Shown piece by piece: positions 1 through 20,397 of a stretch of DNA of 64,000 nucleotides. This DNA is from Candidatus Xenobia bacterium (GTDB lineage Bacteria > Vulcanimicrobiota > Xenobia > Xenobiales > QWHO01), in contig BTUM01000011.1 of NCBI GenBank assembly GCA_045863235.1, positions 32,001 to 96,000 of the forward strand. Reading direction: 5' to 3'. How positions within the stretch are numbered: the first letter of the stretch is position 1; every line of letters begins with the position of its first letter. The notes beneath the pieces are model-generated. The model worked only from the letters and a program-made list of their open reading frames with translations, searched no databases and had not been told where the DNA came from. Made by a program: the position numbers and the translations under genes.

Positions 1-3000
1 TTTCGCCAGCTGCTCTGCCTGGCAGCCGAACGGGTCGGCGAGGAGCTCCGCAGGCCCCCAACCCTGGATCGGGTTTACACCGGGGTTTTGAAGACCGTTG
101 CCGAGCAAAGACTTGCCCTCAGCGAGAGACTTTACAAGGACACGGTTCTTCTCAACGATCTGAGCCTGGCGCGCGATCTCAACCTGATCAGCCTGGTCGG
201 TGCGACGGACCCGCAGCGCCACGCGCCCGGCTATGCCCATCTGCTGTACCAGGAGGTCTGCGATCGCTATTACAGCCTGCCCCCTTTGGGGCTGGGCAGC
301 TATATCGAGGCTCCCTCTGTCTGGACCCAGCTCAAGTGTCGTCCGCTTCCCGACCTGGGCTGGTCGGAAGACCAGTTTTTGACGTTCCTGCGTCTCTGGA
401 TCCGCGTTCAGCTCGAGCGCAGGTGCTTCCGGGCCCTGGGAGTCAGTCTCTACGATCTCGGGCGCGAAGATCAGATCTGGCCGGAAGGGATCGAGATCCG
501 CAAAGAGGGCCAGTGGCTCCCGCGCAAAGTTAACCGCTATTTGCAAGCGCTCGCCCTGGGCGACGAGGATATGGCGCTGCTGCTCGAGTGGCTCCAGGCC
601 CACGTGTCCGGCACCAAGCTCCTTTACAGCGAGCAGCAGAAGTATTACATCGACGAGCTCGGTCTACAGCTCGATCTCAGTCGAGAAGGCTGGCACCTCT
701 GCCAGCGTTGTAACCGCCTGCACCGATTCTTCCTCGAGAACTTGTGTCCCGACTGTTGTGGTGCTATGCATCCGCTGGAGGACAGACAGGAGGCGGTTGA
801 GTCCCGTCGCGGCTACTACCGCCAACAGGTGGAACGAGCCCTCAAGCGGGAGGGCATCGAGCCCTTCGGTCTGTTCGCTGCCGAGCATTCCGCGCAGCTG
901 GCGACTCAGGGCGATTTCGAGGACCTGGCGCGTACGGAGGAATACGAGCTGCGCTTTCAGGACATCCTGCTCGACGATACCGAGCCGCCCGTGGACGTCC
1001 TCAGCTGCACCACGACCATGGAGGTCGGCATCGACATTGGCACACTCAGCGCTGTGGCGCTGCACAACGTTCCTCCGCACGTCTCCAATTACCAGCAGCG
1101 AGCTGGTCGAGCCGGTCGTCGCGGTCGCGGGGTCGCCGGTGTCATCACCTTTGCGCAGGGCGGCACCCACGACGCGTACTTTTTCCAGAAGCCGGACCTC
1201 ATCATCACGGGTGACGTCCAGCCTCCCGTGGTCTATATCGAAAACCGGGAGATCTCGGTCCGTCATGCGCGCGCTTTCGTCTTGCAGACCTTCTTCCACG
1301 AAACGGTGCCATCGACCGGAAGCCCGCAACTCTTTGCCACGCTCGGAACGATCCGAGAGTTCCTTGCCCCTGGCCCTTGCTCGCTCGCGGCTCTCGAGAG
1401 CTGGCTCCAGGGTCACGGTGCCGGGGCTCGCCAACGCTTACTGGCCTGGCTGCCGAAGACTAGTCACTGGCTGGGTGAGGAGATTCCGGAGAGCCTGCGG
1501 GAAGATATCGCCGACGAGGCCACGTTAAAGCTTCCCGACCGCATCCGCGAGGTTCTGCCCCTGGACCAGTTCGCGCGCTATCAGGAGCTGACGCAGAGCG
1601 AGCGGGATCGCCTCGACCTCCTTCTGGACGCCACTTTGTTACAACACCTGATCGAGCGAGCGGTCCTCCCGCGCTACGCCTTCCCGACCGATGTAGTGAG
1701 TCTGCATATCTTCGAGCCGCGCGAGCGGAACAAGCCTCCAAAGTACAAGTATCAGCCCCAGCGTGATCTCCGCATCGCCCTGAGTGAGTATGCTCCGGCG
1801 GCCGAGTTGACCATCGACAAGTATTTATACACGGTCCGGGCTCTTTACTCGCCCTTCCAGGCCAATCCCAGAGAGCCGCTCGAGCACGCCTCTTATCACA
1901 TCTCCTGCGTTGCCAACAAAGACGGTTGCGGGTTCGTCACGGTCAGCCCCGAGCCGAGCGACCTGATCGTCTGTCCGGTCTGTAACGGAGAGCTCGACTG
2001 TCAGGTCTTCGTTCGGCCGCCGGGCTTTGCACCCGACGTGAATCAGGAGGCCAAGCTGGACAAGGGAGGCTCCTCCCACCGCTCAGGTTTCGCGACCCGG
2101 GCTCGGATGGAGGTGCCTCTCGATTCCGGACCCGGAAACTGGAAGCCGGGCCCCGTTCTCCAGCTCCAGACGCGCCACGACACGGTGCCCCTGATCAGCG
2201 TGAACAAAGGCATTCAGAATCGCGGCTTCCTGATGTGCCGCCTGTGCGGGTGCATCGATCCGGTCGAAGGCCCTGGTTACCCGCGCGGAGTTCTTCACCA
2301 AGCGGGTCGTCGGGGAAAGCAGGGAGACAACACCCATAATCACCCCATCCAGCGGGGGGACGTCTGCACGGGCGACTTGGCCCCTCCCTTCTACCTCGGG
2401 CACCGCTTCATCACGGACGTTCTGGTCCTCCGGGTCGAGATGGCTCCGCCACTCACCTGTGACACCAGGCGCCCGGCTGTGAGGGCGGCTCTGACCACTC
2501 TCTCAGAGGCTTTGCTCCAAGCGGCCTCCCGCGTGCTGCAGATCGACGAGGGCGAGATGGAGGCAAACTGGAGTCCTGTGCAGGCCAGCGTGGGACGCTA
2601 CGTCGATCTGTACCTCTACGACGTCCTTCCCGGCGGAGCTGGTTTTGCGCGCGAGAGCCAGGAACGACTGGAGGAAGTCCTCAAGGCCACCGGGGAGCTT
2701 CTGGCGCCGGCCAGCTGCTCGTGCGAAGCCTCGTGCTACCGGTGCCTACGCAACTACACGAACCAGTTTTACCATGGGATGTTGGACCGGGGCCTGGGCT
2801 ACGATCTGCTCTCTTACATCATGACCGGCGCGGTGCCGGCGCTTGCCCCCGATAAGGAAGAGCTGGCCCTGACAGGTCTGTGCCAGGCGCTGGCTCTCCA
2901 CGGCATCCCTGCAGCACTGCGCCAGACCGCCGAGGGACTCGAGGGCCCGATCACTGTGCCGCTGGTGGCCGGGCAAGGAGACGCTACCCTCTGGGTCGCA

Positions 3001-3156
3001 GCTCACCATCCTCTAGTCGAGCGGGCCCTGTCGGAGCACTGGCTGGATGAAGCGGGCCTGATGCTGGCCCAGCCCGTGCACCTGGCGGACGCCTACCAGG
3101 CTGAGCACCAGTTGCCGCTCGCATTCGAGGAGCTGCGAAGAGCGCTGAGTCCCTAG
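1..3156 (+). CDS. SF2 (DEAD/DEAH) helicase, C-terminal part with DUF1998 Zn-binding domain (MrfA/DruE-like); 5' end lies outside the window
   Basis: Frame is open from base 1. Helicase motifs CTTTMEVGIDIG and NYQQRAGRAGRR, several CxxC pairs, and DUF1998-type LYDVLPGGAG...CSCEASCYRCL. Confidence 0.85.
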   Translation, partial: FRQLLCLAAERVGEELRRPPTLDRVYTGVLKTVAEQRLALSERLYKDTVLLNDLSLARDLNLISLVGATDPQRHAPGYAHLLYQEVCDRYYSLPPLGLGSYIEAPSVWTQLKCRPLPDLGWSEDQFLTFLRLWIRVQLERRCFRALGVSLYDLGREDQIWPEGIEIRKEGQWLPRKVNRYLQALALGDEDMALLLEWLQAHVSGTKLLYSEQQKYYIDELGLQLDLSREGWHLCQRCNRLHRFFLENLCPDCCGAMHPLEDRQEAVESRRGYYRQQVERALKREGIEPFGLFAAEHSAQLATQGDFEDLARTEEYELRFQDILLDDTEPPVDVLSCTTTMEVGIDIGTLSAVALHNVPPHVSNYQQRAGRAGRRGRGVAGVITFAQGGTHDAYFFQKPDLIITGDVQPPVVYIENREISVRHARAFVLQTFFHETVPSTGSPQLFATLGTIREFLAPGPCSLAALESWLQGHGAGARQRLLAWLPKTSHWLGEEIPESLREDIADEATLKLPDRIREVLPLDQFARYQELTQSERDRLDLLLDATLLQHLIERAVLPRYAFPTDVVSLHIFEPRERNKPPKYKYQPQRDLRIALSEYAPAAELTIDKYLYTVRALYSPFQANPREPLEHASYHISCVANKDGCGFVTVSPEPSDLIVCPVCNGELDCQVFVRPPGFAPDVNQEAKLDKGGSSHRSGFATRARMEVPLDSGPGNWKPGPVLQLQTRHDTVPLISVNKGIQNRGFLMCRLCGCIDPVEGPGYPRGVLHQAGRRGKQGDNTHNHPIQRGDVCTGDLAPPFYLGHRFITDVLVLRVEMAPPLTCDTRRPAVRAALTTLSEALLQAASRVLQIDEGEMEANWSPVQASVGRYVDLYLYDVLPGGAGFARESQERLEEVLKATGELLAPASCSCEASCYRCLRNYTNQFYHGMLDRGLGYDLLSYIMTGAVPALAPDKEELALTGLCQALALHGIPAALRQTAEGLEGPITVPLVAGQGDATLWVAAHHPLVERALSEHWLDEAGLMLAQPVHLADAYQAEHQLPLAFEELRRALSP

Positions 3157-4265
3157 AGATAGATTTCCGATGCGCGCGTCAGAGTGAGGGTGGTTTCATC
3201 GGTCAATGTCGCTCGCAGGACACGGATGCGGGAGTTCCTCGGGAATTGCCGCAGGGAGACACCGAAGGTAGGCTCCGCCAGGACATCGACCTCCCGGTTT
3301 TGCCCGTCGACTGCGGTCAGGGAGGCGTCCGAACGCGGCTGAGTCACTCGAAGCTCCCGGTCGATCAGGTGAGAATCCAACGGCGGGGCCTCCCAGTAAG
3401 CGTCACACAGCTGACGGACGGCACAAAATCGGCAGACCTCCGGTTCGGGCCGGGCTTCGACTAGGCCTCGCCCCAACTGGGAACGCCAAGAATCGATCTC
3501 TCGGCCCAGGCGGCGCTCGAGCTCCAGGAGTTGCGGTTCCGTCGGACGGACCTCAAGCGACCTGCCCGAGACGGGAACCACTCGCAGAAGAGCGGGCAGT
3601 CGCCCGCGAGCCCGCCACCAGAGCAAGCCATATAGGGCGATCTGGTCTCGGTAAGCCTCGCTCATCTCTCCCGACTTGTAGTCGGTGATCCAGTCTCCGT
3701 CGGGACGAATCTGCACCAGGTCAAGGATTCCTTTGAGGGGCAGCGTCGGGTGCTCGACGAGGCACTCTCCCAGAGTCTGGTAGTCTCCGGTGTGGCTCTC
3801 GCGTTGCGGGCTGGGCGAAGTGCGCCCTTCCCAGGTGGACCTCAGGAGTCGCAGCACGGTGTTGCGCACCTCCAGCGCATCGATTCCGAGCCCTGTCTCG
3901 CGCCACGCGCGGGGGTTCTGTCGGAGGCGGACCAACGCGCGCTCTAACAGGGCGTCCGTCCTGGTCTTGAAATCGAAACTCTTGAGCGCCTCCCCGGCCT
4001 CACGGGTTCCAAGCGGCGGAGAGCCCTTCTGGATCAGCCAGGCGATCAGCTCCTTCATCAGGGCGTGAACGACCTGGCCCTGCGCGGAGCGAGAATTGTA
4101 GGGAGAGGGATAGCACCCCGAGAGCCCCGGGTAGGTCGAGTTCTCCAGCTGCCAGCGCCTCGGGCACTGGCGCAGCGCAGTCAGCGCGGAGAAGCTGAAT
4201 TTGTGCGGAGCTTCGGCCAGACGAAGGGGCTGAGAGTTGAAGTAAAGCTCGGGCGCCGGCGTCAC
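3153..4265 (-). CDS. PD-(D/E)XK RecB/Cas4-like nuclease with predicted 4Fe-4S cysteines
   Basis: FSFSAL..LRQCPRRW, LKGILDLV...ITDYKSG, QIALY and CRFCAVRQLC. GTG start at 4265 overlaps the EVE gene stop (GTGA). Confidence 0.8.
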   Translation of the reverse strand: MTPAPELYFNSQPLRLAEAPHKFSFSALTALRQCPRRWQLENSTYPGLSGCYPSPYNSRSAQGQVVHALMKELIAWLIQKGSPPLGTREAGEALKSFDFKTRTDALLERALVRLRQNPRAWRETGLGIDALEVRNTVLRLLRSTWEGRTSPSPQRESHTGDYQTLGECLVEHPTLPLKGILDLVQIRPDGDWITDYKSGEMSEAYRDQIALYGLLWWRARGRLPALLRVVPVSGRSLEVRPTEPQLLELERRLGREIDSWRSQLGRGLVEARPEPEVCRFCAVRQLCDAYWEAPPLDSHLIDRELRVTQPRSDASLTAVDGQNREVDVLAEPTFGVSLRQFPRNSRIRVLRATLTDETTLTLTRASEIYL

Positions 4266-4705
4266 GCGAGATGAAGGGAACCGCCGACTTCCGCCCCACC
4301 CAGAATGCCCCTCAGGTAATCGTAATCGCTCCCAGGAATCTCGATGAATCCCCCGCGGCAAAAGAGCATGTTGGTCGGGACCGTGTTGTTGAGCTCGCGG
4401 AAGACGTCGAGGAACCAGAGGCTATCCCCTACTGGCCTCCGTACCCCGGTCTCCAGGAACTTGACCCGACAGCGGTTGGGGTAGTTCTGGCCTTCTCCAA
4501 AGATCGGCTTGGTATCTTCGAAGGGGGACCCGTCGATCAATCCGTGCCCGTCCAGGCATTGCACCTGGGTCAGATAGACAATGAAGCGGTCGCCCTTGGC
4601 CAGGTCGGCGAAGCGCTTGCGGTGGTGCTTGAGCACGCCAATCGTGCCGTGCTGCTGGACTTTCTCATAGGTGTCGGGGCGGAAGGCCAGGAGCCAGTTG
4701 CGCAT
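4262..4705 (-). CDS. EVE (PUA-like) domain protein
   Basis: ATG at 4705 gives 147 aa: MRNWLL...LAKGDRFIVY...PFED..PIF...YPNRCRV...GFIEIPGSDYDYL, the typical EVE pattern. Confidence 0.8.
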   Translation of the reverse strand: MRNWLLAFRPDTYEKVQQHGTIGVLKHHRKRFADLAKGDRFIVYLTQVQCLDGHGLIDGSPFEDTKPIFGEGQNYPNRCRVKFLETGVRRPVGDSLWFLDVFRELNNTVPTNMLFCRGGFIEIPGSDYDYLRGILGGAEVGGSLHLA

Positions 4706-5263: not shown

Positions 5264-6664
5264 GTGAACACTCTGCCTCGACCCATTGGCCGCCAGAAAG
5301 AGGTTCTCTGCTTACCAGCGACTGGGCACACCGTTGTCCTTGGTACCGCTGGCAGCGGCAAGACGACGCTCGCGATCCACCGTGCGGCTTTTCTAGCCAA
5401 CCCCATGACCGACCACAGTGGGCGCACGCTTTTGGTCACATTTAATCGATGCCTGGTGGCGTACCTCAAAGCGCTAGGCGGAAGGCTCGGACAGGTCGAC
5501 GTTCATAACTATCACAAGTTTGCGCGCGGCTATCTTGCCCGTCGCGGCAGGATGGGATGGAACTCCATATGCAACGCGGACTCGATGGAGACTTTCTGCC
5601 GCCAAGCCGTCGCCGCGGCCAAAGAATCCGGAAAACGCAACCCGATCCTCGACCGCCCCATTGAATTCCTCGTGGAAGAATTCCGGTGGGTTGCCCAAAA
5701 TGGGATCAGGAACCTAGTCGACTACCTTGGTGCCGAGGACGCCGGTCGCTTGGGTTCTCGCGTTTCAGACATCGACCGAGAGCCAGTGTTTTCTGCCTAC
5801 GAGCGGTACCGAGCTATCCGGGATGCGAGCGGCAAGCACTACGACTGGGACGACGTTGCCCAGACGGTAATCTCCGAGTTCGAGTCCGATAGTGACAAGC
5901 GCTTCTACACGCACGTGATTATTGACGAGGGGCAGGACTTTTCGCCGGTGATGATTCGATCACTGGCTTTAGCGGTCCCCGAAAACGGAAGTCTCACATT
6001 TTTTGGCGACATGGCACAACAAATCTATGGAAACAAGATCTCGTGGCGAACTGCCGGCCTCTCGGTGCTGGATCACAATGTGTGGAGGTTCGAGGAAAAC
6101 TACCGCAACACGAAGCAGGTCGCCCAACTTGCCCTCGCCATCGCAAAGTCGCAATACTACCGAGGTGTAGCGGACCTCGTCGAGCCGAAATTCCCTGCTG
6201 CCGATGGACCACTGCCTGCCCAGGTGGCGTTCTCTTCGGAGGCTGAGGAGATACGCTTCGTTGTAGACATGGCGCAGAAGCTTGCTCAGACAGGAACCGT
6301 GGCTGTTCTGTTCCGTGACCGTGAACTCGAAAAGCAGCTCCCGGACCTCGCATCTATTCCGACGACCCGTCTTCATCGCGAACTTGAGACTTGGCCTGCG
6401 GGCCCAGGCCTGTTCTATGGTACATATCACTCGGCCAAGGGGCTTGAGTTTGATTCGGTGCTTATCCCCTATGCGACGAGTTCGCGGCTGCCGCATCCGG
6501 ACGATGTCGTTGCGTTCGGGGCGGAGGAGGCATGCGCGAGAGACGTGAAGCTGCTCTATGTGGCTGTTACGCGGGCGAAGCTAAACCTCATCATTACTCA
6601 CACGGGGGATCCCACGCCATTCCTGCCAGCCGGCGCCGGGCTGCTGCAAAGAAGCCGACGGTGA
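5264..6664 (+). CDS. UvrD/Rep-like SF1 helicase (compact, 466 aa)
   Basis: Walker A GTAGSGKT, VTFN, Walker B IIDEGQDFS, GDMAQQIY, NYRNT, TYHSAKGLEFD and LYVAVTRAK. Confidence 0.92.
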   Translation: MNTLPRPIGRQKEVLCLPATGHTVVLGTAGSGKTTLAIHRAAFLANPMTDHSGRTLLVTFNRCLVAYLKALGGRLGQVDVHNYHKFARGYLARRGRMGWNSICNADSMETFCRQAVAAAKESGKRNPILDRPIEFLVEEFRWVAQNGIRNLVDYLGAEDAGRLGSRVSDIDREPVFSAYERYRAIRDASGKHYDWDDVAQTVISEFESDSDKRFYTHVIIDEGQDFSPVMIRSLALAVPENGSLTFFGDMAQQIYGNKISWRTAGLSVLDHNVWRFEENYRNTKQVAQLALAIAKSQYYRGVADLVEPKFPAADGPLPAQVAFSSEAEEIRFVVDMAQKLAQTGTVAVLFRDRELEKQLPDLASIPTTRLHRELETWPAGPGLFYGTYHSAKGLEFDSVLIPYATSSRLPHPDDVVAFGAEEACARDVKLLYVAVTRAKLNLIITHTGDPTPFLPAGAGLLQRSRR

Positions 6665-7362
6665 GCGCCTCGATTCGAGCGAGCGTACAGTCGCGCGATA
6701 TTACAAGACTCTGCCATTTCACGCCCTCCCGGAATCTGATGCACATCGCCACAGACCCGAGCGGGCTCCTGGCTTCAGCTCGGCTGCGGGAAGACGAGAA
6801 GGCGGTGTTCAACGCGACTGATCGCCAGCGATTAGACGGCTGCCCGGACTATGTCTGCTGTTCCATCCAGTACCCCAACGCCTGGTATTTCCGGAGAGCT
6901 CGCGAAAATGAGAGTATCTTTAAAGACTGGGTAGTCGTGCTCATCAAGGCCCACCATTTGTGGGCTGCCGGAACGAAATTCTGCCCGCGCAACGCAGCGG
7001 CAAACTCTGGCCGAGACGTTGAAGAGGGGGACATCGCGTTCGAGTCGATGTTCGCACCTACTGTCGTAGGTGCCCACGGAAGGACCTTTACGCGATCGAC
7101 TACACATCCCCTTTGGCTCCCTACCGACGAACAGGCTGAGGTGCTTATTCCCGACCGCGTCGCTCGGGAAGATATCATTGCCGTAGCAGTGGCGGATGAA
7201 TCGCAGGCGAAGCGGGAGCACGCCCGCCTGACCCAGCTAAAGGTTGATCTGCCGGCAATCCTGATGATTCCCGACTTTTTTCGACCTAATTCGCTCAGCG
7301 CCCAGTTACGGAGTGGACGCGTGCCGACCGAGATATCCTTTCGACCGGGAGGTTGTCATTGA
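6661..7362 (+). CDS. darT: DarT-family (DUF4433) ssDNA ADP-ribosyltransferase, DarT1-like
   Basis: GTG at 6661 overlaps the helicase stop. Motifs LCHFT..NL..I, D..RLDG, CCSIQYPN, NAA and catalytic TDEQAEVL. Confidence 0.85.
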   Translation: MSASIRASVQSRDITRLCHFTPSRNLMHIATDPSGLLASARLREDEKAVFNATDRQRLDGCPDYVCCSIQYPNAWYFRRARENESIFKDWVVVLIKAHHLWAAGTKFCPRNAAANSGRDVEEGDIAFESMFAPTVVGAHGRTFTRSTTHPLWLPTDEQAEVLIPDRVAREDIIAVAVADESQAKREHARLTQLKVDLPAILMIPDFFRPNSLSAQLRSGRVPTEISFRPGGCH

Positions 7363-9167
7363 TGACGTCATCCGATGTCCCCAGCAGAACTACCGTTTCC
7401 CGTGCAAAGTCCGAGGGCGCCCTCATCGCTCTGGCAGCGGGTGACGCCCTCGGTTGGCCGCAGGAGTTCGCAGGGCGGGAACGCGCAAAGCTGCGGTTGC
7501 AGGCATCCCCAGCCTTCCGCGATTGGGAACGTAGCAGTGGGGGCCGCTACTACGCGTACTCTGAGACGATCCGCGCGGGCGAGTATAGCGACGACACGCA
7601 ACTCACACTTGCGACCGCCCGCTGCCGCATCCATGCGGGGGCAGCTTGGTGGGCGCACTTTACACGAAATGAGTTGCCACTCTGGACCATCTACGAGCGC
7701 GGTGGCGGCGGGGCAACCAAGCGAGCGGCCGAGAGTTGGCTCCGAGGAAGGGCGCCGTGGAAGCAAGCCGACGGGACAGCGGTCCGGCGATACTTCGATG
7801 CGGGGGGGAACGGGGTGACGATGCGAGTCGTCCCGCACGCCATATATTTCGCATCGGATGAAGATCCGACTAACCTACTCCGAGATGTCGTCATGGATGG
7901 CGCCGCCACGCACGGTCACCCTCGTGCGCTCGTTGGTGCCGCGGCATACGCATACGCAGCCTGGTGGCTCTTGCGGGCACATGAGACGGTTGGGTTTGGT
8001 GAGTTAATCACCGTCCTCCTAGACAACGCATCCAGGTGGGGAGCATTGCCCGGAGCCTCTGCCGCCAAGAATGGCTGGTTGGATGCCGCCGACAAAGTCG
8101 TCGGTAACTACGAGAAACTATGGACCGACGTTGTTGAAGAGACACGATCTCTTCTCGCATGCGTGCGAAGCGGCTTGTCGGCGGGCGCCCTCTCAGATGA
8201 TGAAGAAGTTCTGGCTAAGCTAGGTGCCTTTGGAAAAGCCAAAGGCGCAGGGACAGTAAGTGCAGCAGCAGCGATCTACCTGGCTGCTCGCTACGCAGCG
8301 CAACCAACTCAAGGTGTCCTTCGAGCTGCCTTCGCGGTCGGTGCTGACACAGACACGATAGCTGCGATGACGGGCGGACTTCTTGGGGCTCTCGCGGGCA
8401 CCGATTGGATTCCTGAAGAGTGGTTCGAGGTTCAGGACTGTCAGTACCTTCGGCACATCGCAAACAAGGTTGCAGCGCGCGCGACATCGGAAGTTGCCGA
8501 ATCGCACTACGTTACCGTGAAGGAAATCGATGCATTGATCGGTCGATTGGTGGTCGGCTCTAAGGAGGATGTCGACTTCGACTTCGGCGGCACGCGTCGC
8601 GTCCGTGTCATTGAGTCCTGGGCCCCCCCTGCAGCTTCGAATACGACAGTCGTTCAAGCCTGGCGGTTTCAGGTCTCCGACGGGCAAACGTTGTTCATGA
8701 GGAAGCTCGGCAGGAAGTCGAGGGATGATGGTGCTCCCAGTGGCAATCGAGGCGCTTTGGAATCGCCTGCCTCCGCACACCAGGCGCACCTCAAGATCGA
8801 AGCGCGAGCCGCGGGCGTAAAGCTAAGCGTCAGGGACCTAGCTACTTCAAGCGCGTTCTACGAAGGAGTGCTTGGCCTTACGGCAATGAAGAAGACGATT
8901 AATTTCGTTTCATTCGGCGCGCTATCGCTTGTCGACGGCAGGTACGCTGTAGAGCTCTCGGGCGGTGCGGTTGCTCTCGATGCTGCTGGCATGCGCAACA
9001 GGGTCGAGGTCCACGTGCCGGACCTCGGCACAATCAATGAAAGACTCGATAAAGATGGCGTGCGAATAGTGCAGCCAGTCGCGTCGATGCCGTGGGGTGA
9101 GCGATGCCTGCACTGCCTTGATCCCGACGGAAACCTCGTCGAGGTCGTCGAAAGGCGCGTCCGATGA
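7362..9167 (+). CDS. ADP-ribosylglycohydrolase (ARH/DraG family) fused to a C-terminal VOC/glyoxalase-like domain
   Basis: TGATG coupling with darT. ARH motifs AAGDALG, YSDDTQLT, GNG..MR..P, TH.HP and DTDTIAAMTG. C-terminal VRDL..S.AFY..VLG...PWGER....DPDGNLVE. Confidence 0.9.
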   Translation: MTSSDVPSRTTVSRAKSEGALIALAAGDALGWPQEFAGRERAKLRLQASPAFRDWERSSGGRYYAYSETIRAGEYSDDTQLTLATARCRIHAGAAWWAHFTRNELPLWTIYERGGGGATKRAAESWLRGRAPWKQADGTAVRRYFDAGGNGVTMRVVPHAIYFASDEDPTNLLRDVVMDGAATHGHPRALVGAAAYAYAAWWLLRAHETVGFGELITVLLDNASRWGALPGASAAKNGWLDAADKVVGNYEKLWTDVVEETRSLLACVRSGLSAGALSDDEEVLAKLGAFGKAKGAGTVSAAAAIYLAARYAAQPTQGVLRAAFAVGADTDTIAAMTGGLLGALAGTDWIPEEWFEVQDCQYLRHIANKVAARATSEVAESHYVTVKEIDALIGRLVVGSKEDVDFDFGGTRRVRVIESWAPPAASNTTVVQAWRFQVSDGQTLFMRKLGRKSRDDGAPSGNRGALESPASAHQAHLKIEARAAGVKLSVRDLATSSAFYEGVLGLTAMKKTINFVSFGALSLVDGRYAVELSGGAVALDAAGMRNRVEVHVPDLGTINERLDKDGVRIVQPVASMPWGERCLHCLDPDGNLVEVVERRVR

Positions 9168-9549: not shown

Positions 9550-10857
9550 ATGAAGCAGTGGCATGAGTTTCGGGACCCTATCCATGGGTTCGTTCGTGTC
9601 GATTCGGATGAGCGGAAGGTCATCGACAGCAGACCGTTCCAGCGTCTTAGACACATCCACCAGTTGGCGCTGACCTATCTGGTCTATCCATCAGCGTCCC
9701 ATAAGAGGTTCGAACATTCTCTCGGCGTGATGGAGCTGGCGAGCCGGGTATTTGACGCCATTTTCTCCAAGTGGGATGATCCGGTCAAGAAACTTCTACC
9801 CAAGTTAATAGAAGACAAGAAGTTGAAATACTGGCGGACGGTCTTAAGACTGGCCGCACTCCTGCATGACATCGGTCATCTTCCCTTCTCCCATGCGGCC
9901 GAAGCGCAACTGCTTCCCGACGACTACGACCACGAGCGCATTGGTTGGGACCTGATCACAACTGATGCCAACTTGAAGACAGCTTTTGAAGGCTCCGATC
10001 CACCGGTGCGAAGCGAGGACGTTGCACGAATCGCGGTCGGGAAGGTGGATGGGCAGAGAGAGCTCGAGCCCCACGAGAAGCTCTTGAACAGCATTATCAC
10101 AGGAGATGCCTTCGGAGTTGATCGGATCGACTATCTTCTCCGTGATGCCCATCACTGTGGAGTGGCCTACGGTCGTTTCGACCATTACCGGCTCATCGAT
10201 ACCCTGTTAATCCTAATTGCTCCAAAAACAGGACAACCAGCGATCGGCGTGGAGCATGGTGGCCTCCAGGCGGCCGAATCACTCAATCTTGCACGGTATT
10301 TGATGTTCTCTCAAGTCTACCTCCACCCTGTTCGGCGGGCCTATGACAAGCATCTCCAGAGCTTTCTGAGCCTGTGGTTGGAAGAAGGCAAGTTCAAGAC
10401 GACTCCAGCCTGCTTTCTAGCGATCACCGATAACGAAATTCTGGCTGCAATCCACGAAGCGGCTTACGATGAAGGAAACAAAATGCACGGAGCGGCCCAA
10501 CGTATCTGGTGCCGTAATCACTTCAAAATCCTCTACCAGGCTGGACCCCAGGACGGTCCGGAAATGATGAAGCTGCTCGGCAAAGAAGCGGAGAACAAGT
10601 TCCCCGACGACGTTTTTCACGATGATTATCAAAAGAACAGCTCCGTGAACTTTCCAGTCTTGAAGCGGGACAACCAGGTCGGAGAGTCTCTGCAGGAGTC
10701 GCACGTTCTCAGAAACCTTCCTCCCATCGGCGTCAACGCGCTCATGGCCAGTTCAAATCTTGAAATCCAAAAGAAAATCAACGAGTGGCTCGTGCCGCGT
10801 TCAGCGGAGCTAAGAGCTGCATTCCCAAAGGAGAAACCAGATGACAAGAAGGCCTGA
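9550..10857 (+). CDS. HD-domain phosphohydrolase (YwfO/SAMHD1-like dNTPase family)
   Basis: RDPIHG, FQRLRHIHQL...YPSASHKRFEHSLG, LLHDIGHLPFSH, DRIDYLLRD and VYLH. Lower GC than the flanks. Confidence 0.9.
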   Translation: MKQWHEFRDPIHGFVRVDSDERKVIDSRPFQRLRHIHQLALTYLVYPSASHKRFEHSLGVMELASRVFDAIFSKWDDPVKKLLPKLIEDKKLKYWRTVLRLAALLHDIGHLPFSHAAEAQLLPDDYDHERIGWDLITTDANLKTAFEGSDPPVRSEDVARIAVGKVDGQRELEPHEKLLNSIITGDAFGVDRIDYLLRDAHHCGVAYGRFDHYRLIDTLLILIAPKTGQPAIGVEHGGLQAAESLNLARYLMFSQVYLHPVRRAYDKHLQSFLSLWLEEGKFKTTPACFLAITDNEILAAIHEAAYDEGNKMHGAAQRIWCRNHFKILYQAGPQDGPEMMKLLGKEAENKFPDDVFHDDYQKNSSVNFPVLKRDNQVGESLQESHVLRNLPPIGVNALMASSNLEIQKKINEWLVPRSAELRAAFPKEKPDDKKA

Positions 10858-11362
10858 CATTCAGATCCTGTTGGCTCTCATTCACGAGTGCCAGGAGCGG
10901 GAGGTTTCTCTGACGGAAACCACCGCACAGCAAATACTATTCCTCTATCAAGAGCTGAGCAACGACCAGGTGTTCCGTTTCGAGTGGAGCAGCTGGTCCC
11001 CCGAATGCTTCAATATCTTAGAAGTTCTCAATGAGCTAAGATGGTTCCAGCTGGCCCGGTACGAAACCTTGCCAGACGGATCCGCTACGCTTTGCCTTAC
11101 GAGCAAAGGCGTGTCACGACTTCAAGCATCGTCCCAAGAGCTTGGGAAGGCAATCGAAGACTATCTGGCATGGCCCTTTCAGCCATCCGGAAGCCTGGTG
11201 TCTGCGCTTTACATGCAGAGATATTGGGATAAGAAGATCTTCAAACAGGAGTTTGAGGCTCGTTTTCCCAATTTATCCGCCGAGAAAGTATTGCGGGAGC
11301 TCGCAACGTTGGCGAAGCCCATCGACAGCGAGGAGCGCCTCCCCGAGGAGGCCTGTGTCTAG
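10841..11362 (+). CDS. Small winged-HTH protein, YwgA/Panacea-like (divergent)
   Basis: Overlaps the HD gene end. T..QQILFLYQ...F.F....SP....L..L.....LTSKG resembles the YwgA pattern LQK..Y...F...YGP...LT..G. Confidence 0.5.
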   Translation: MTRRPDIQILLALIHECQEREVSLTETTAQQILFLYQELSNDQVFRFEWSSWSPECFNILEVLNELRWFQLARYETLPDGSATLCLTSKGVSRLQASSQELGKAIEDYLAWPFQPSGSLVSALYMQRYWDKKIFKQEFEARFPNLSAEKVLRELATLAKPIDSEERLPEEACV

Positions 11363-11988: not shown

Positions 11989-13137
11989 CTACGGAGCGCC
12001 TGCGAGCTCTCGGTGGACCCAGGGAAACCGAATGAACTCCTGCTCCAACCGGAGCGAAGGCGCGTACCGATGGCGGACGAGGTCGAGGTACAGCTCTCGC
12101 TCCTCCGGGGTCAGCCGGAAAACATCCTCGGCGGTCGCCTTCTTCTCGGTGACCCAGCTCGACCGGTGCTCGAGCAGCGTGGCACGGTCCATCATGAGCG
12201 AGCGGGTCTGGGGAAAGTGCTCTCGCAAGCGATGGAGGATGGCGAACCCGTGCGTATCGATGTCGCCCCAGTAGTAGATGGGGCGGTCCTTGAGCCAGGT
12301 GGCGCGGTCCATCGTCTCGACCAGATAGCCCGACCCGAAGACCACCAGGCTGTCGGGCAGGCGCGGGAAGGCCAGCACGTTGATCTCGTTCTCCGCGATG
12401 AAGATGCGGCTGACGCTGGGCGCGAAGCGCGCGAACTCGTCGCGAGCCAGCGAGAGGTCGGTGAGCTCGGGGGGTAGCTCCTGGACACTGTCGAGCAGGC
12501 GAAAGCGCACGCGCGTTGGCTTCTGCAGGAACCCGAATCGCCCTTCGAAGTTGCCCGCCTCAGCGTCCACCGCCTCGGCCGGGAGCGCCAGCTCCAGCAG
12601 TTCGCGCAGCACCGTCTTGTGCTGCTCGATGAACTTGGTGTGGACGCCAGGGAAATCGACCTGCCGCACAAACACTCCGGGCCGCGGATTGACCTTTAGC
12701 CAAGACGTCACGTCCAGCAGGGAGGCCCAGCTGTCGGCCAGCTCCAGGGCCCTCAGCGGGCGGCGTAGGAGCCAGGGCAGCGCCTCCGGGCAGCGCGCCC
12801 GGGTCTCCTCGGTCAGGCACCGGAAGCGGGCCCAGTCGCGAGTCTTGCCGATGAGTGCCAGAGCCGCCTCTGGCGTGTCCAGCCAGACCCGCACGGGCAC
12901 CTCGTTGCGACCGATCACACGGTGGCGCACGCTGCGCATCTCCAAGCGATAGGCCGGGGAGCGCAGGCCCGCGATCCAATCCTGCACGGCGGCAAAGCGG
13001 CTGGCGAGCTCGTCTGAGGTCGGACCCTTAAGCGGGATGCGCAGCGGGAACAGCTGCTCCCCTTCCGCTAGGAGGCGCCCCTGGTCCCACAGCCTGCGAA
13101 CCCGCTTGCGCACCTCCGCCTGCGTGGTCCAGCTCAA
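11989..13137 (-). CDS. jetD: Wadjet JetD (DUF3322 + DUF2220 Toprim nuclease)
   Basis: GVHTKFIEQH, IAENEIN, FGSGY, YWGDIDTHGFAIL and RLEQE. TTG start overlaps the jetC stop. Confidence 0.93.
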   Translation of the reverse strand: MSWTTQAEVRKRVRRLWDQGRLLAEGEQLFPLRIPLKGPTSDELASRFAAVQDWIAGLRSPAYRLEMRSVRHRVIGRNEVPVRVWLDTPEAALALIGKTRDWARFRCLTEETRARCPEALPWLLRRPLRALELADSWASLLDVTSWLKVNPRPGVFVRQVDFPGVHTKFIEQHKTVLRELLELALPAEAVDAEAGNFEGRFGFLQKPTRVRFRLLDSVQELPPELTDLSLARDEFARFAPSVSRIFIAENEINVLAFPRLPDSLVVFGSGYLVETMDRATWLKDRPIYYWGDIDTHGFAILHRLREHFPQTRSLMMDRATLLEHRSSWVTEKKATAEDVFRLTPEERELYLDLVRHRYAPSLRLEQEFIRFPWVHRELAGAP

Positions 13138-16100
13138 GTCTGTCGGGCTTCCTTGAGGGCCTGGTACTCCTCGATCGTGAGATTCTGGAGCAGCGACTCG
13201 CGCCCGTCGCGATTGGAGACGAATCCCACGCAGGAGACGTAGGGCTCGATGATGTGGATCTTTTGCAGCGGCGTCACGATGAGGAGCTGGATGTTCAGCT
13301 TGCGAAAGAGGTCGAGCCCGAACTGAGCCGACTCGTCGGAGGCGCGCCCGAAGGCCTCGTCGATGACCACGAAATGGAAGCTGCGCGAACGCTCCGTTCC
13401 GAGCTCCATGTTGAACTGGTAGACCAGACTGGCGGCCAGAATGGTATAGGCCAGCTTCTCCTTTTGCCCCCCGGACTTGCCGGACGAGTCGCTGTAGTGG
13501 TCGAACTCCGAGTCGTCCGCGCGATACCGTTCCGAGGCCGAGAACGTGAACCAGTTGCGCACGTCGGTCACCTTGCGGGTCCAGCGCTTGTCCAGGTCCG
13601 ACTGCCCTTCCCGGCCCCGGAACCGCTCGATGATGCCCCGCACGCGCAGGAACTTCGTCTCGGAGTATTGCTCCTCGTCCGAGCCGGTGAGCGCCCCTTC
13701 AGTGCAGCTGCGCAGCTCGGACTGGAAATCGCGGATCTCCGCGTCAGTCGTGGACTTGGGAACGAGTTTGATGTAACGGCCCGGCGTGTAGTCGATATCC
13801 TGCAGGGAGCGGTTGATCTGATCGATCCGCTCATTGATGCTCTCGCGCTCCTTGGCGAGCTGCGACTGGAAGTTGGCGATCTCGCGGATGGTGTTCTCGT
13901 TGAGCAACTCCTTGAAGCGGGCTTCAAAGCGAGGCAGATCGTCCTCGTGCAAACGGATCAGGAGGGCGCGATACTCCACCGCCGCCTCCACGCTGGCATC
14001 CATCTCATGGCTCTCCAGCGGGAAGGCCTCGCGGAAGTCGGTCATGCGCAGGAGCACTTTCTCGCGCAACGAGGCGACCTGCTTGCTCTCCGAATCGATC
14101 CTGCCTTGCAGGTGCTCGCGCACCTCGCGTTCGCGGGCGTCACACGACTTGAGCGAGAGCTCGACCAGTCCCAGTTCCTTGGTCCGCAGCGCCTCCAGGC
14201 GCGGGAACTGCGCGCTCTGCTCGTCGGTGGGCAACGGCAGCTCGGCGAGCAGCTCGCGCGCGCTCAGCGACTTGTCCTCCGTGACGCGGAGATCACCCCT
14301 TTCGTCCGTGAGCCGGTGGCGGGTTTCCGTCAGCTGCCCTTCCAGCTCGGCCAGCTGCCGGGTGAGCTCGCGCAGCAGGTCGGAGGCCTTCTCGAGCGCC
14401 GCCCGCTGCTCCTCGAGCGCGGCGATCTCCAGCACCACCGGCTGCCAGTCCAGCTCGCGGTAGTCAGCGTACTCGTCTAGTTTGCCCAGCGCTGTCAGCA
14501 CTTCTTTGAGTCGACTGGCCTCGCTCTTGAGCCTGGCCACCGTGGCCCCGTGCCCGGCGATGACCGCTTCGAGATCCCGGCGCTGCTTGTCGAGCGCTGC
14601 GATCTTCGCTTCGTTGGACCAGCCCAGCACGAACCGACTGCGATCGTTGAGGGCGTGCCGGTCGTCCTTCTCGTGCTTGCCGTCGGGCGACTTCACCTGG
14701 CCCGCCCGCGTGACGGCTTTCGATTCCCGGCGGAACTGCTCGATGCTGCTGCTGCAGACATGGTCGAAGCGCCGGCGGAGTTCGCTCTCCAGCCAGCCGA
14801 AGTGAGGCGTGTCTGGCTTGAGCTCCAGCTTGCCCGCCAGCGTCTGCACGGGCAGCCCCGGGCGCGAGGAGACCGGGGCGGCCAAGACCTTGTAGTAGAC
14901 CAACCGGCCCCGCAGGCGTGTGCGGTCGACCCACTCCGAGACCTGCGCGTAGTGGCGCTCGGGCACCAGCAGAGACAGCGCGAAGTTGCGCAAGAGGCGC
15001 TCGGCGGCACCCTCCCAGTCCCTCTCGTCGTCGCGCACCTGGACCAGCTCTCCCGCGAAGGGCAGGTCGCGCTCGGCCAAGCCCAGCTCGCCGCACAGGT
15101 AGGCCCGCGTCTCGATCTGGGCCTGCTCGATATTGCTGCGCCGGGCTCGCAGGCCGCGCAGCTCGACCTCCAGCGCCTGATGCTCCGAGCGCTTCTGCTT
15201 GAGCTCGAACTCCGTCTCGCTGAGCTCATTCTCCCGCTCGGCCACGAGGGCTTCGTTCTGCCCGCGCAGGCGGCCGCACTCGTCGCGCTGGCGGCTGAAG
15301 TCCTCCAGCGTCTGGGTGACCGCCAGCCCCGCCGTGCGTGCCAGCTCCGCGTAGCGCCCGTGTCGCTTCTGGCGCCGCTCCTGCTCCTTGACCCTGTCCG
15401 CGATCTCGCCTTTCAGGCGCTCCAGGCGATCGCCGCCGTTGTCTGAGATGGCCCGTTTCAGCTCTCCCTGGCGACGCTCCTGACGCGCCTGCGTCTCCTC
15501 GAGCTCGGCGATCTGGACCTGGAGCTTTCCCGTCTTGAGGCCCAGGTTCCCGAGACGCTCCTCTAAGAGCCCGCGTTTGAGGCTCCCGAAGTAGGCCTTC
15601 AGGCTGTCGCGGCCGAGCTTCATCTCCTCGACCTCGGCCAGCAGAGCCGTGAGTGCGTCGCAGTCCCCAACCAGGGGAGCCAACTTCTCCACCTGGGCCC
15701 GGGCCCGCAGGACCGCTTCGTGAGCGCGATTCAGGTTGTCGAAGTGGGCGATCAGGTCGCCAATGCGGGCTTCCACTTCGAATTCCTCGAGCATGTGCTG
15801 GCGGACGAAGTCGGTCAGGTTCCCCACTGACTTCATCGAGACGGTCTGGTGAAACAGCTCCAGAGCTTGCTCTGACTGGATGCCGAAGCGCCGCCGGAAG
15901 TGCGCCGAGTAGCTCGAGAAGCTGTCGAACAGCTCCACCTTCTGAGCTTTGAGCCGTTTCTTGAGGGCCGCCACCTCGCTGCCGAAGTTGGCGAAGTGCT
16001 CGCGGATGGTCAGCCCCTCGTCGGCCACCGCGTAGAGGCGCTCCGGCTTCCCCCCGACCTCTCGCATCCAGAAGACCTGCGCCAGCGTGACCGTCTGGCG

Positions 16101-16496
16101 GTAACCGCGATTGCGAAAAACGCCCAGGATGACCGAGTAGCTGTTGTGGTCGCGCAGGCCGACGGGCTTAGCGGAGGAGCTCGTGTCCGCCAGCTCGGAC
16201 TTGTAGTAGCCCAGCACGTAGGAGCGCAGGCTGCGCTCCTTGGCGTCGGCCCCGGCCGCCTTGTTGAACTGCACGCGGTGAGCCGGAACCAGCAGCGTGG
16301 TGATAGCGTCCACCAGCGTCGACTTGCCCGAGCCGATGTCGCCGGTGAGGAGTGCATTCCGCCCCGTCGGGCGAAAGGCCCAGGCGCGCTGGTCGAACGT
16401 GCCCCAGTTGTACACCTCGAAGCGCTCCAGGCGGAACCCCGCCAGGTTTGGCTCGTTCTCCGCCTCGAGCAGGCTATGCAGCAGCTCGTCCATCAT
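13134..16496 (-). CDS. jetC: Wadjet JetC, SMC-like ATPase
   Basis: NWGTF, Walker A GDIGSGKS, long coiled coil, signature KSGGQKEKL and Walker B IDEAF. Confidence 0.95.
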   Translation of the reverse strand: MMDELLHSLLEAENEPNLAGFRLERFEVYNWGTFDQRAWAFRPTGRNALLTGDIGSGKSTLVDAITTLLVPAHRVQFNKAAGADAKERSLRSYVLGYYKSELADTSSSAKPVGLRDHNSYSVILGVFRNRGYRQTVTLAQVFWMREVGGKPERLYAVADEGLTIREHFANFGSEVAALKKRLKAQKVELFDSFSSYSAHFRRRFGIQSEQALELFHQTVSMKSVGNLTDFVRQHMLEEFEVEARIGDLIAHFDNLNRAHEAVLRARAQVEKLAPLVGDCDALTALLAEVEEMKLGRDSLKAYFGSLKRGLLEERLGNLGLKTGKLQVQIAELEETQARQERRQGELKRAISDNGGDRLERLKGEIADRVKEQERRQKRHGRYAELARTAGLAVTQTLEDFSRQRDECGRLRGQNEALVAERENELSETEFELKQKRSEHQALEVELRGLRARRSNIEQAQIETRAYLCGELGLAERDLPFAGELVQVRDDERDWEGAAERLLRNFALSLLVPERHYAQVSEWVDRTRLRGRLVYYKVLAAPVSSRPGLPVQTLAGKLELKPDTPHFGWLESELRRRFDHVCSSSIEQFRRESKAVTRAGQVKSPDGKHEKDDRHALNDRSRFVLGWSNEAKIAALDKQRRDLEAVIAGHGATVARLKSEASRLKEVLTALGKLDEYADYRELDWQPVVLEIAALEEQRAALEKASDLLRELTRQLAELEGQLTETRHRLTDERGDLRVTEDKSLSARELLAELPLPTDEQSAQFPRLEALRTKELGLVELSLKSCDAREREVREHLQGRIDSESKQVASLREKVLLRMTDFREAFPLESHEMDASVEAAVEYRALLIRLHEDDLPRFEARFKELLNENTIREIANFQSQLAKERESINERIDQINRSLQDIDYTPGRYIKLVPKSTTDAEIRDFQSELRSCTEGALTGSDEEQYSETKFLRVRGIIERFRGREGQSDLDKRWTRKVTDVRNWFTFSASERYRADDSEFDHYSDSSGKSGGQKEKLAYTILAASLVYQFNMELGTERSRSFHFVVIDEAFGRASDESAQFGLDLFRKLNIQLLIVTPLQKIHIIEPYVSCVGFVSNRDGRESLLQNLTIEEYQALKEARQT

Positions 16497-17050
16497 ACCT
16501 CCGCGTAGGCCGCCAGGCGGCCTTCCAGCTCGCTCAGCCACTGCGCATCCACGAACGCCTTCAGGATGCGGCGCACCTCGTATTCCTGCTCTTTGAGGCG
16601 CTTGACGAAGCCCATGTCGATCAGCTTATTCAGGTCGGCTTCCACCTTGTCGACCCGCTTGGCGTCGTTGCTGCCCTCCGGCTGGAAGAGGCGCACCAGC
16701 TCGCCGATCTCGTCGCGGCGCAGAACAAGCCGGGTCGACCCTCCCGCCGCGTCGAGCTCGGCCAGCTTGCGCCGCAGGAGAGCGATGAGCAGGCTGAGCG
16801 ACCAGGTGAGCTGCCTCTTCACCACCAGGCGGGGCAAGGGCGCCTCGTCCTCCCCCCGCGCGCGCTGCCGGAGGAAGGCATATCCCTCCGATTCGTCCAG
16901 GAAGAGCTCCAGACCCATCACCTTGACGTAGTCCCGCACGGCCGACTGGAGGTTCAGCAGGCCGGACCACACCGCCGGGTCCTGGTCCTGGTAGACTACC
17001 CCTTTGAGCAGTGGGATGACAATTCCCGACAGTTCCGCTACCGGCTGCAC
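16493..17050 (-). CDS. jetB: Wadjet JetB (DUF4194)
   Basis: LLKGVVY, L.LDESEGYAFLRQ and EVRRILKAFVDAQWL. Lies between jetA and jetC. Confidence 0.92.
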   Translation of the reverse strand: MQPVAELSGIVIPLLKGVVYQDQDPAVWSGLLNLQSAVRDYVKVMGLELFLDESEGYAFLRQRARGEDEAPLPRLVVKRQLTWSLSLLIALLRRKLAELDAAGGSTRLVLRRDEIGELVRLFQPEGSNDAKRVDKVEADLNKLIDMGFVKRLKEQEYEVRRILKAFVDAQWLSELEGRLAAYAEV

Positions 17051-18495: not shown

Positions 18496-18828
18496 AGATT
18501 TGCGGAATTGGCCCCGAGCGGCGGGTCTCCTGTCGAACATGGCTTTACTGTGTCATGGAAGGGTGACAGGTAGTGTCATTGCGCCAGGGATCAAGCTGAG
18601 CAACCAATTCGGGACAGCGAACAACTGGGCCGTGTGATTGACCCGCGAAATGTTGATCGCTGCAGTGCCTGCCGTCGTTGACACCGCGGAAGGCTACACT
18701 CGCAGCGCCATAACACGCGGCGTCTGGCGGGTCGAAAAGCACGGTCATTTGTTGAGGGTTATCAAGGAACCAGCAGGCCTCAATTTTCCCCTGCGCATTT
18801 CGCAGCGCGTCGGGAAGTTAAGACTCGT

Positions 18829-19785: not shown

Positions 19786-19788
19786 GGA

Positions 19789-20385
19789 TTACTCCTGGCA
19801 GATCGCCCGTAATGATTGACCCATCCAGCTGGGCACGTGCGGCAAGAGGCGCAAGAGCTGATTCTTAATCACGAATGAGAGAGAACCCTGAAGCTTGCCG
19901 ATAACCTCCGGAGTAACGGCTTCGCGTCCGAGATAGTAAAGTGCGGAGATCACCAAGCCACCCTCCGTACCGGCTCCTACCAGCTTTGTCGAGGCTGCGT
20001 GTTTTAGCTCGACCTCCTGCTTGCCGACCCGAATGATGCGAGAAGGCCCGTCGGTCAGGTAAATCGTCCGGGCCGGGACCTGGGTTGTAAGTCCCAAGCG
20101 ATTTGCTGCCTCCGCTCCCGAAAGCTGAAGCTTCTCCTGCCGCGCACGAGCGACTGCTTTCGCGACTTGCACCGCCGATACGGGTAGCCGGCCGAGGAGG
20201 GGGCTCTCCTTCGGGCGCACGTACACCCCTCGGCCAACGCGTTCTATCACTCGGTCTTTCACGAGTCGCGAGAGAGCTTGATCTACCGATGCGCGATTGC
20301 CAAGAGAACTCATCTCCTTGGCAGTAAACGGCTCGCCACGTCTCCTATGACGGACCTTCTGTCGGACTGTCTCCATTAAAGTCAT
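19789..20385 (-). CDS. abiEi: AbiEi-like antitoxin (DUF6088-type wHTH)
   Basis: VDQALSRL...IERVGRGVY, AANRLGLTTQVP...YLTDG. Directly upstream of the toxin, with a GGAAGGA RBS before ATG 20385. Confidence 0.85.
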   Translation of the reverse strand: MTLMETVRQKVRHRRRGEPFTAKEMSSLGNRASVDQALSRLVKDRVIERVGRGVYVRPKESPLLGRLPVSAVQVAKAVARARQEKLQLSGAEAANRLGLTTQVPARTIYLTDGPSRIIRVGKQEVELKHAASTKLVGAGTEGGLVISALYYLGREAVTPEVIGKLQGSLSFVIKNQLLRLLPHVPSWMGQSLRAICQE

Positions 20386-20397
20386 GGGTCCTTCCAC

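Follow-up and report, generated by a model that had tools for sequence, protein, structure and literature searches.

A helicase–DarT–ADP-ribosylhydrolase operon of a Candidatus Xenobia bacterium as a distant member of the DarHTG family

Introduction

The closest described relative of the genes analysed here is DarHTG (Liu-DS3), which consists of DarH, a UvrD-like helicase without the 2B subdomain, DarT, and DarG3, which resembles eukaryotic ADP-ribosylhydrolases (ARHs) (Liu et al., Nucleic Acids Res 2026, PMC13069673). The text of that paper reports that the Escherichia coli system protects against T4, T5, T7 and SSL_2009a with abortive or slowed host growth, that mutants in the DarT active site and in the helicase ATP site lose defence, that a DarG3 mutant could not be cloned, and that the prevalence in E. 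coli is "less than 0.5%". A preprint (10.64898/2025.12.08.692795) calls the helicase TgaH. Here we describe an operon encoding a helicase, a DarT and an ARH in a 64,000-nucleotide stretch from the genome of a Candidatus Xenobia bacterium (assembly GCA_045863235.1, contig BTUM01000011.1, positions 32,001 to 96,000 of the forward strand). We call this whole stretch the window, and number positions from its first letter.

DarHTG or Liu-DS3 came up only in PMC13069673 and the preprint among the literature searched, which included few subscription papers; apparent matches to "DarT3/DarG3" in 10.1101/2023.12.14.571748 were citation marks. Base specificity, DarG3 biochemistry, DarH–DarT binding and the glyoxalase tail described below were not met in the text of PMC13069673 or of the preprint, some of which may be shown in figures, Fig. 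S5 or Tables S4–S9, and the DarHTG section of PMC13069673 does not state the helicase's mode of action. We also drew on further literature (PMC11825919, PMC9503650, PMC12945103, PMC11833690, PMC11125620).

Results

The operon and its relationship to DarHTG

The original prediction for this locus was of an undescribed defence or toxin–antitoxin module made of three coupled genes with intact catalytic motifs, in which an ARH would be a third class of DarT antitoxin. The layout is as proposed, with GTGA and TGATG overlaps between successive genes. All three proteins score above the Pfam cut-off in the expected families, and their catalytic residues are invariant in alignments of 38 (DarH), 43 (DarT) and 115 (ARH) rows. 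The features are as follows.

5264–6664, plus strand: darH, 466 amino acids with a GTG start; predicted UvrD-like superfamily 1 helicase without the 2B subdomain
5360–5362, plus strand: Walker A lysine K33 of DarH (from the alignment)
6661–6664, plus strand: GTGA stop/start overlap of darH and darT (from the sequence)
6661–7362, plus strand: darT, 233 amino acids from the GTG at 6661; predicted DNA ADP-ribosyltransferase of the DarT1 side
Within 6661–7362, plus strand: DarT key residues H19-F20-T21, D54, R57, D59, S68, N111, Q158 and E160 (from residue tallies and trees)
7138–7140, plus strand: catalytic E160 of DarT (from the alignment)
7347–7364, plus strand: GGGAGG ribosome-binding site (7347–7352) and TGATG overlap of darT and darG3 (7360–7364) (from the sequence)
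7362–9167, plus strand: darG3, 601 amino acids from the ATG at 7362; predicted ARH-fold antitoxin with three domains
7392–8486, plus strand: ARH catalytic domain, DarG3 residues 11–375 (from VIA-align and conservation)
8517–8714, plus strand: middle helix and beta-sheet domain, DarG3 residues 386–451, of no named family (from secondary structure and conservation)
8808–9158, plus strand: C-terminal glyoxalase/VOC domain, DarG3 residues 483–599 (PF00903, 39.2 bits, residues 486–595)

Both the module and the ARH as antitoxin (DarG3) agree with what has been published as DarHTG (PMC13069673), so the trio is not undescribed: it is a distant member of that family. We found a helicase–DarT–ARH trio of the E. 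coli type (L069) on a Salmonella plasmid, and DNA at least 99.8% identical to it in 21 of 5,426 E. coli genomes; judging by layout and prevalence, this is probably the Liu-DS3 that was tested. Proteins of the E. coli type have the accessions WP_000699006.1, WP_000151475.1 and WP_001087212.1. The window proteins are each 25% identical to those of L069 over nearly their full lengths (E = 3e-29, 2e-10 and 3e-35, respectively; the helicase alignment spans 464 columns). When profiles of the E. coli type, built from 58, 79 and 61 sequences, were searched against the 30,796 open reading frames (ORFs) of the host genome, the window genes ranked first with 161 bits (next 134), 76 bits (the sole match) and 189 bits (next 28). 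We consider it very probable that the window trio belongs to DarHTG. It is too distant for a DNA search, so a blastn search of the operon against E. coli genomes gave no match. In its 2023 version PADLOC has no ARH model and scores the DarT weakly, at just 22 bits, which is why the operon looked uncatalogued.

Conservation and gene linkage

Conservation of the trio elsewhere was a check named in the original prediction, and the trio does recur. A search with DarT as query recovered 64 loci in GTDB genomes from many phyla, and 55 of them have helicase, DarT and ARH in the same order, so the arrangement is not due to chance. The others comprise three loci with DarT and ARH, one with helicase and DarT, three with DarT and NADAR, and two with DarT alone. 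Some related loci have split or frameshifted genes. The E. coli-type query recovered 79 metagenome loci–67 complete, seven with DarT and ARH, and five with helicase and DarT–and many of the partial ones sit on short contigs. Searches anchored on the ARH, which avoid selecting for DarT, found DarT directly upstream in 11 of 11 plasmid records, a set that includes near-copies (three from Ralstonia and two from Cereibacter). In four samples of 301 genomes this anchor matched 3, 2, 7 and 2 times, centre genomes included; eight of the nine non-seed matches have DarT upstream (four of them with DarH), and the ninth has a transposase.

Among 22 loci on viral contigs, eight have a strong DarG3 match and 14 have an ordinary ARH without DarT. 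Six of the eight DarG3 loci have helicase and DarT, one has DarT only, and one is cut by the contig end. The viral contigs L189–L199 carry an ordinary phage ARH and no DarT, with a helicase-like gene following within about 1 kb in 10 of 11 loci and one repeat; the helicase matches are weak in all 11 rows. The window ARH had no tblastn match among 50,697 phage records, and no E. coli-type DarT was found in the viral contigs searched.

Other pairings were seen as well. At L175 (5040–7375), in a genome of the same phylum as the window genome, a DarT2-like toxin (PF14487, 131.8 bits, with tyrosine at the H-Y-E position) overlaps an ARH of the DarG3 clade; there is no helicase, and the flanks hold a sacsin-like protein and a TOTE-type primase. 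Divergent DarTs paired with DarG3 lie behind an Eco57I-type methylase gene at L218 (3101–4045) and L219 (3586–4533). At L216 (4659–6698) the DarT of such a pair is fused to a cold-shock-domain N-terminus, and at L070 (2248–3843) a fused DarT with DarG3 lies within a BREX locus. Neither NADAR nor ARH was detected adjacent to the DarTs of the DarT1-side clade at the plasmid loci L088, L091, L092 and L093, two of which lie behind a toprim-domain gene region and one behind a NERD-helicase gene.

The toxin

DarT of the window is the sole DarT of the host genome and matches PF14487 with 62.9 bits; H19, R57, D59, N111, Q158 and E160 are the residues invariant in its alignment. The original prediction had called it DarT1-like, and its sole PDB match by sequence search is indeed DarT1 of E. 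coli C7 (8BAQ, E = 1.9e-21), with no DarT2 chain among the matches at E ≤ 10. By these sequence criteria the toxin belongs to the DarT1 side. The residues of DarT1 that were tested are described in PMC11543638, according to which M71 is essential and K74 and Y75 contact the guanine. The window DarT retains the equivalents of DarT1 H17, F18, T19, D49, R52, D54, S63, F72, N104, Q150 and E152 (catalytic E152, R52, D54, base-binding N104 and S63 being E160, R57, D59, N111 and S68 in the window protein), and replaces M71 by Y76, Y73 by arginine, K74 by R79 and Y75 by A80. These states are largely shared by the 45 toxins of its clade (clade A, see below): tyrosine at the M71 column (45/45), alanine at Y75 (41/45), aspartate at D54 (45/45), serine or threonine at S63 (45/45), asparagine at N104 (45/45), and lysine or arginine at K74 (31/45). 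Because the window DarT differs from DarT1 at M71 and Y75, we put guanine N2 as its target at only about even odds.

The S63 column, Ser68 in the window DarT, is tyrosine in all five DarT2s compared (the H-Y-E motif). The N104 column was considered as a marker of guanine specificity, and was weakened as such: asparagine also occurs in three of the five macrodomain-linked DarT2s, so the column is no clean guanine marker. Toxins of the E. coli type (clade C) do not keep D49.

The antitoxin

DarG3 matches ADP_ribosyl_GH (PF03747) with 146.6 bits over residues 19–353. Its metal site consists of E35, S76-D77-D78, D329, D331 and T332, and presumably works by the two-metal mechanism of ARHs; S76-D77-D78, D329 and D331 are the residues invariant in all 115 rows. 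An AlphaFold2 model made from this alignment has a mean pLDDT (predicted local distance difference test) score of 90.5, and a single-sequence fold with a pLDDT of 36.9 was discarded. ARH3 structures are the top Foldseek matches of the model, and VIA-align of the ARH domain gave Z = 35.9 to ARH3 (6g1p; root-mean-square deviation 2.8 over 304 residues) and Z = 33.3 for each of two others, ARH1 (6g28) and the immunity protein 6dre. Aromatic and basic inserts specific to DarG3 (W55-x-R57, GGR, W133 and Y144) appear suited to nucleic acid.

The model orders the protein as ARH domain, middle helix-plus-sheet domain, disordered linker and VOC domain. The original prediction had overlooked both the VOC domain and the conserved middle domain. 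The latter can be aligned across clades A, B and C and L175, with G441-Q442 conserved; an Atlas structure search returned mainly ARH clusters and no usable feature match, and the modelled domain is a possible module for binding single-stranded DNA (ssDNA) or a partner. VIA-align matched the C-terminal domain to VOC folds at Z = 11–15. It lacks the first-strand histidine (K487 instead) and keeps E549 and E594, at what we take to be the metal-ligand positions of VOC proteins, so this tail probably serves for binding or dimerisation rather than as an enzyme. A single-sequence profile found the tail in 13 of the 64 loci, which is an undercount since Pfam adds two loci, and it is absent from DarG3 of the E. 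coli type. Being clade-specific, and with other tails occurring, it is accessory. At L161 (4630–6744) DarG3 has a C-terminal Mrr-type restriction endonuclease domain.

The helicase and its predicted complex with the toxin

DarH matches the Pfam families UvrD-helicase (52 bits) and UvrD_C (64.7 bits). Its invariant residues, named by the motifs of superfamily 1, include Walker A (G30-S31-G32-K33-T34), Walker B (D221-E222) and R437. Residues 357–545 of E. coli UvrD, which we take to be the extent of the 2B subdomain, align to just residues 353–372 of DarH (about 20 residues). Matches of DarH in PADLOC are weak (the best is GajB, 59 bits), and by Pfam and PADLOC no GajA nuclease lies beside it, the adjoining genes being DarT and the ARH. 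About 2.6 kb before the window start, on the same contig, another gene (L229, contig positions 27322–29436) encodes a UvrD-like helicase with a fused ParE/RelE-like domain. This helicase scores 134 bits against the DarH profile, so DarH is part of a wider group of island helicases.

A DarH–DarT complex was predicted with a score of 0.79, compared to 0.01 for the best of three controls; the score mark, attained by 116 out of 157 solved complexes as against 2 out of 215 mismatched pairs, is a rough guide here (our own alignments, with 38 and 43 rows). Runs share at least 91% of their contacts, and the partners have pLDDT of at least 81. The predicted interface is formed by residues 4–51 and 269–274 of DarH, in the N-terminal subdomain, and by residues 22–31, 85–89, 181–193 and 229–230 of DarT; it excludes R57, D59, N111 and E160. 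Within clade A the DarT side is well kept (R189 in 40 of 45 toxins, F87 in 43, D89 in 44 and H28 in 37). Among 13 NADAR-linked DarTs, R189 is replaced (most commonly by leucine, in seven), position 28 is most commonly serine (nine), and D89 is kept in six. A sequence search found no structure of a DarT–helicase complex. The prediction supports direct binding of DarH to DarT. Given the need for ATP published for the E. coli system, such a complex would most simply be read as a motor bringing the toxin to ssDNA at the replication forks of phages. The idea in the original prediction that the helicase supplies ssDNA is unproven, and gains support from the modelled contact.

Phylogeny

The DarG3-type ARHs (33 rows) form one clade with 100/100 support against eight other ARHs, a result that carries a long-branch warning. 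Within it are clade A, with the window protein, clade B, mainly from Bacteroidota, and clade C, the E. coli type. The DarT trees, made on subsets of 58 and 40 rows from 163 extracted and four added sequences (L076 left out), give the same three groups. A further check named in the original prediction was for a single clade of helicase- and ARH-associated DarTs: no bootstrap replicate of 200 joins the helicase-linked DarTs, yet the approximately unbiased (AU) test does not reject one clade (P = 0.077), so the statement that they are not one clade is not upheld.

Rooting the tree on DarT2 places the NADAR-linked DarT1s, as a single clade (98/97), within the ARH-linked lineages. The AU test rejects grouping of all ARH-linked DarTs (P = 0.022), and gives P = 0.434 without L079 and L184. 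As the outgroup is narrow (five DarT2s from one phylum), long branches meet and the rejection goes when those two loci are removed, the placement of NADAR within a DarT family whose ancestral partner would be ARH is only a lead.

Genomic setting

The window copy lies in a defence island, as had been claimed, with a Druantia DruE-like gene at 88–3156, Wadjet JetABCD at 11989–18540 and AbiE at 18829–20397 (by Pfam and PADLOC). The original prediction also saw no macrodomain or NADAR gene in the window, and this extends further: no NADAR was found in the host genome (97.6% complete), and its four macrodomain matches are all on other contigs. GC content of the operon is 58–61%, compared to 65.8% for the genome, and the operon was not found in the four same-genus genomes searched, two of which are only about 65% complete. 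Between positions 4700 and 9600 no sigma-70-like promoter was found, and the seven terminator-like sites there are not clearly above shuffled sequence (mean 3.9, standard deviation 2.2).

The region at 88–4361 holds the end of the DruE-like helicase (PADLOC 699 bits), convergent with a minus-strand PD-(D/E)XK nuclease gene that is a weak match to DruK. A short minus-strand ORF with no Pfam match (4262–4705) lies just upstream of darH and is divergent from it. At 9550–11362 a gene for an HD-domain protein overlaps a 173-amino-acid ORF without Pfam match, possibly a further two-gene module. From about 21 kb onward in the window, no defence family was found in the 12 ORFs scanned.

Discussion

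We think the locus is best explained as a DarHTG anti-phage toxin–antitoxin system working by the following mechanism, to which we give a probability of roughly 60%. DarT would use NAD+ to ADP-ribosylate a base in ssDNA, an activity established for its family, with guanine N2 having about an even chance of being the target. DarG3 would clear the mark in uninfected cells through its two-metal ARH site, in keeping with the antitoxin role indicated indirectly in E. coli. DarH, as a 2B-less superfamily 1 translocase, would hold DarT by its N-terminal subdomain and, driven by ATP (the need for which was demonstrated in E. coli), travel along or open the replication intermediates of the phage, bringing it to ssDNA faster than DarG3 can erase the marks. 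Marked phage DNA would then stop replicating while host growth is aborted or slowed, by analogy with the E. coli system.

Several points weigh against this explanation. The evidence on phage defence comes from the E. coli system and would carry over to the window copy by analogy. The tested system is probably of clade C, with a toxin more distant from that of the window (25% identity) than DarT1 is, and the E. coli trio is equated with Liu-DS3 on the strength of layout and prevalence. The DarHTG section of that paper contains no in vitro activity of DarG3. ARH enzymes tested so far, as far as the sources covered go, did not remove guanosine-ADP-ribose from RNA, so erasure from guanine N2 by DarG3, which the original prediction held to be chemically plausible, is unproven. 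DarG3 lies beside a helicase-free DarT at six loci (L070, L175, L184, L216, L218 and L219), so DarH is not universally needed. Clades B and C do not preserve the DarT residues of the predicted interface, and conservation on the DarH side is scarcely above the average (0.72 vs 0.68).

The strongest competitor, which we rate somewhat below even, keeps the same system and has the toxin mark a base or position other than guanine N2, with DarG3 matched to that linkage. The failure of tested ARHs on guanosine-ADP-ribose fits it, as do the replacement of the essential M71 by tyrosine throughout clade A and of Y75 by alanine in most of it, the asparagine at the N104 column of three DarT2s, and the DarT2-like partner of DarG3 at L175. 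So does the behaviour of T4. Its NADAR, AdfN (gene 30.3), overcomes DarTG1, and the argument has been made that it removes guanine-ADP-ribose regardless of the toxin making it; E. coli DarHTG nevertheless restricts this phage (PMC13069673), so that either the helicase is faster than AdfN or the E. coli mark does not lie on guanine N2. Against a different mark, the aspartate, serine or threonine, and asparagine at the D54, S63 and N104 columns are each constant in clade A and K74 is lysine or arginine in 31 of its 45 toxins, the sole PDB match is DarT1, and the T4 result bears on clade C, which does not retain D49. Erasure itself might be the wrong role: DarG3 could neutralise DarT mainly by binding, or its substrates could be free ADP-ribose derivatives or proteins carrying ADP-ribose rather than a base mark. 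In fold it comes nearest to hydrolases of protein ADP-ribosylation (ARH3, ARH1, Tri1 and DraG), a 2026 table gives no ARH as hydrolase for any base-linked ADP-ribose, and the extra domains could bind a partner. We regard this as improbable, because the metal ligands are invariant in 115 sequences, and because one ARH clade serves very different DarT lineages, as would be expected of an enzyme whose substrate is a common product more than of a lock-and-key inhibitor; the inserts of DarG3 likewise seem to suit nucleic acid.

An alternative that concerns the helicase is that DarH acts as a sensor or switch, keeping DarT (or the DarT–DarG3 balance) quiet and releasing or activating it on phage ssDNA or protein. 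The predicted complex is compatible with this, and the interface includes residues 22–24 beside the H19-F20-T21 NAD-binding strand. According to the text of PMC13069673 the helicase of the sister system ietHAS is partly antitoxin-like, and DarT toxicity is suggested to be regulated. The same text has an E. coli DarH ATP-site mutant that could be cloned and no longer defended, without a report of toxicity, in contrast to the ietH mutant, and most of the catalytic residues lie outside the predicted interface; we consider a sensor role unlikely, and an active motor that delivers DarT the better reading. The operon might instead be a selfish addiction module, or decayed cargo, that plays no part against phages in this host; its absence from the four genomes searched within the genus (two being about 65% complete), its lower GC content and the frameshifted or split genes of several relatives would agree with that. 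Patchy presence is, however, normal for defence systems. With three intact reading frames, invariant catalytic residues, a place among Druantia, Wadjet and AbiE, and a family validated against phages (PMC13069673), this alternative is very unlikely.

A bolder picture goes beyond the preferred delivery mechanism, and we offer it tentatively. DarG3 might be the first ARH-fold enzyme to strip ADP-ribose from a DNA base, and DarH–DarT a stable helicase-driven complex that marks DNA faster than its own eraser, or the NADAR counter-defence of phages, can undo. DarG3 would then represent a wider DarT–ARH family, with or without helicase and once with a DarT2-like toxin, that may predate DarT1–NADAR, with a single replacement of ARH by NADAR.

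The system has already been described in print, and what this locus adds is the VOC tail on the eraser and the predicted helicase–toxin contact, whose interface names residues to mutate, among them R185, R189 and F87 of DarT and L15, C16, F43 and T49 of DarH. A non-guanine mark, or a helicase that outruns erasure, could explain how DarHTG stops T4 while AdfN defeats DarTG1.

Comparison with known systems

DarHTG (Liu-DS3) shares with the window operon the 2B-less UvrD-like helicase, DarT, the ARH-fold DarG3 and the defence-island setting, and the E. coli-type trio is homologous to the window trio over nearly full length. The window trio differs in being only about 25% identical and in forming a clade of its own (A) in the trees of toxin and antitoxin alike, in the VOC domain that ends its DarG3 and is missing from the E. 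coli type, and in a toxin that keeps the D-x-x-R-x-D loop of DarT1, which is partly lost in clade C.

DarTG1 (Schuller et al. 2023, PMC11543638; 8BAQ) has the same toxin fold, and most of its key residues, as described there, are present in the window DarT; the window operon has an ARH antitoxin and a helicase rather than NADAR, and carries tyrosine, arginine, arginine and alanine for M71, Y73, K74 and Y75. DarTG2 shares the PF14487 toxin superfamily and the toxin–antitoxin layout, whereas the window operon is without a macrodomain antitoxin, has serine for the tyrosine of H-Y-E, and matched no DarT2 structure by sequence. Members of the ARH/DraG family (ARH3, ARH1, DraG and Tri1) have the helical fold (Z = 30–36) and two-metal aspartate site of DarG3, which differs in its own clade, its inserts, its two extra domains and its presumed DNA substrate. 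Gabija GajB and other defence UvrD-like helicases share superfamily 1 motifs with DarH and give weak PADLOC matches, but DarH is shorter, lacks 2B, and is partnered by an ADP-ribosyltransferase instead of the GajA nuclease.

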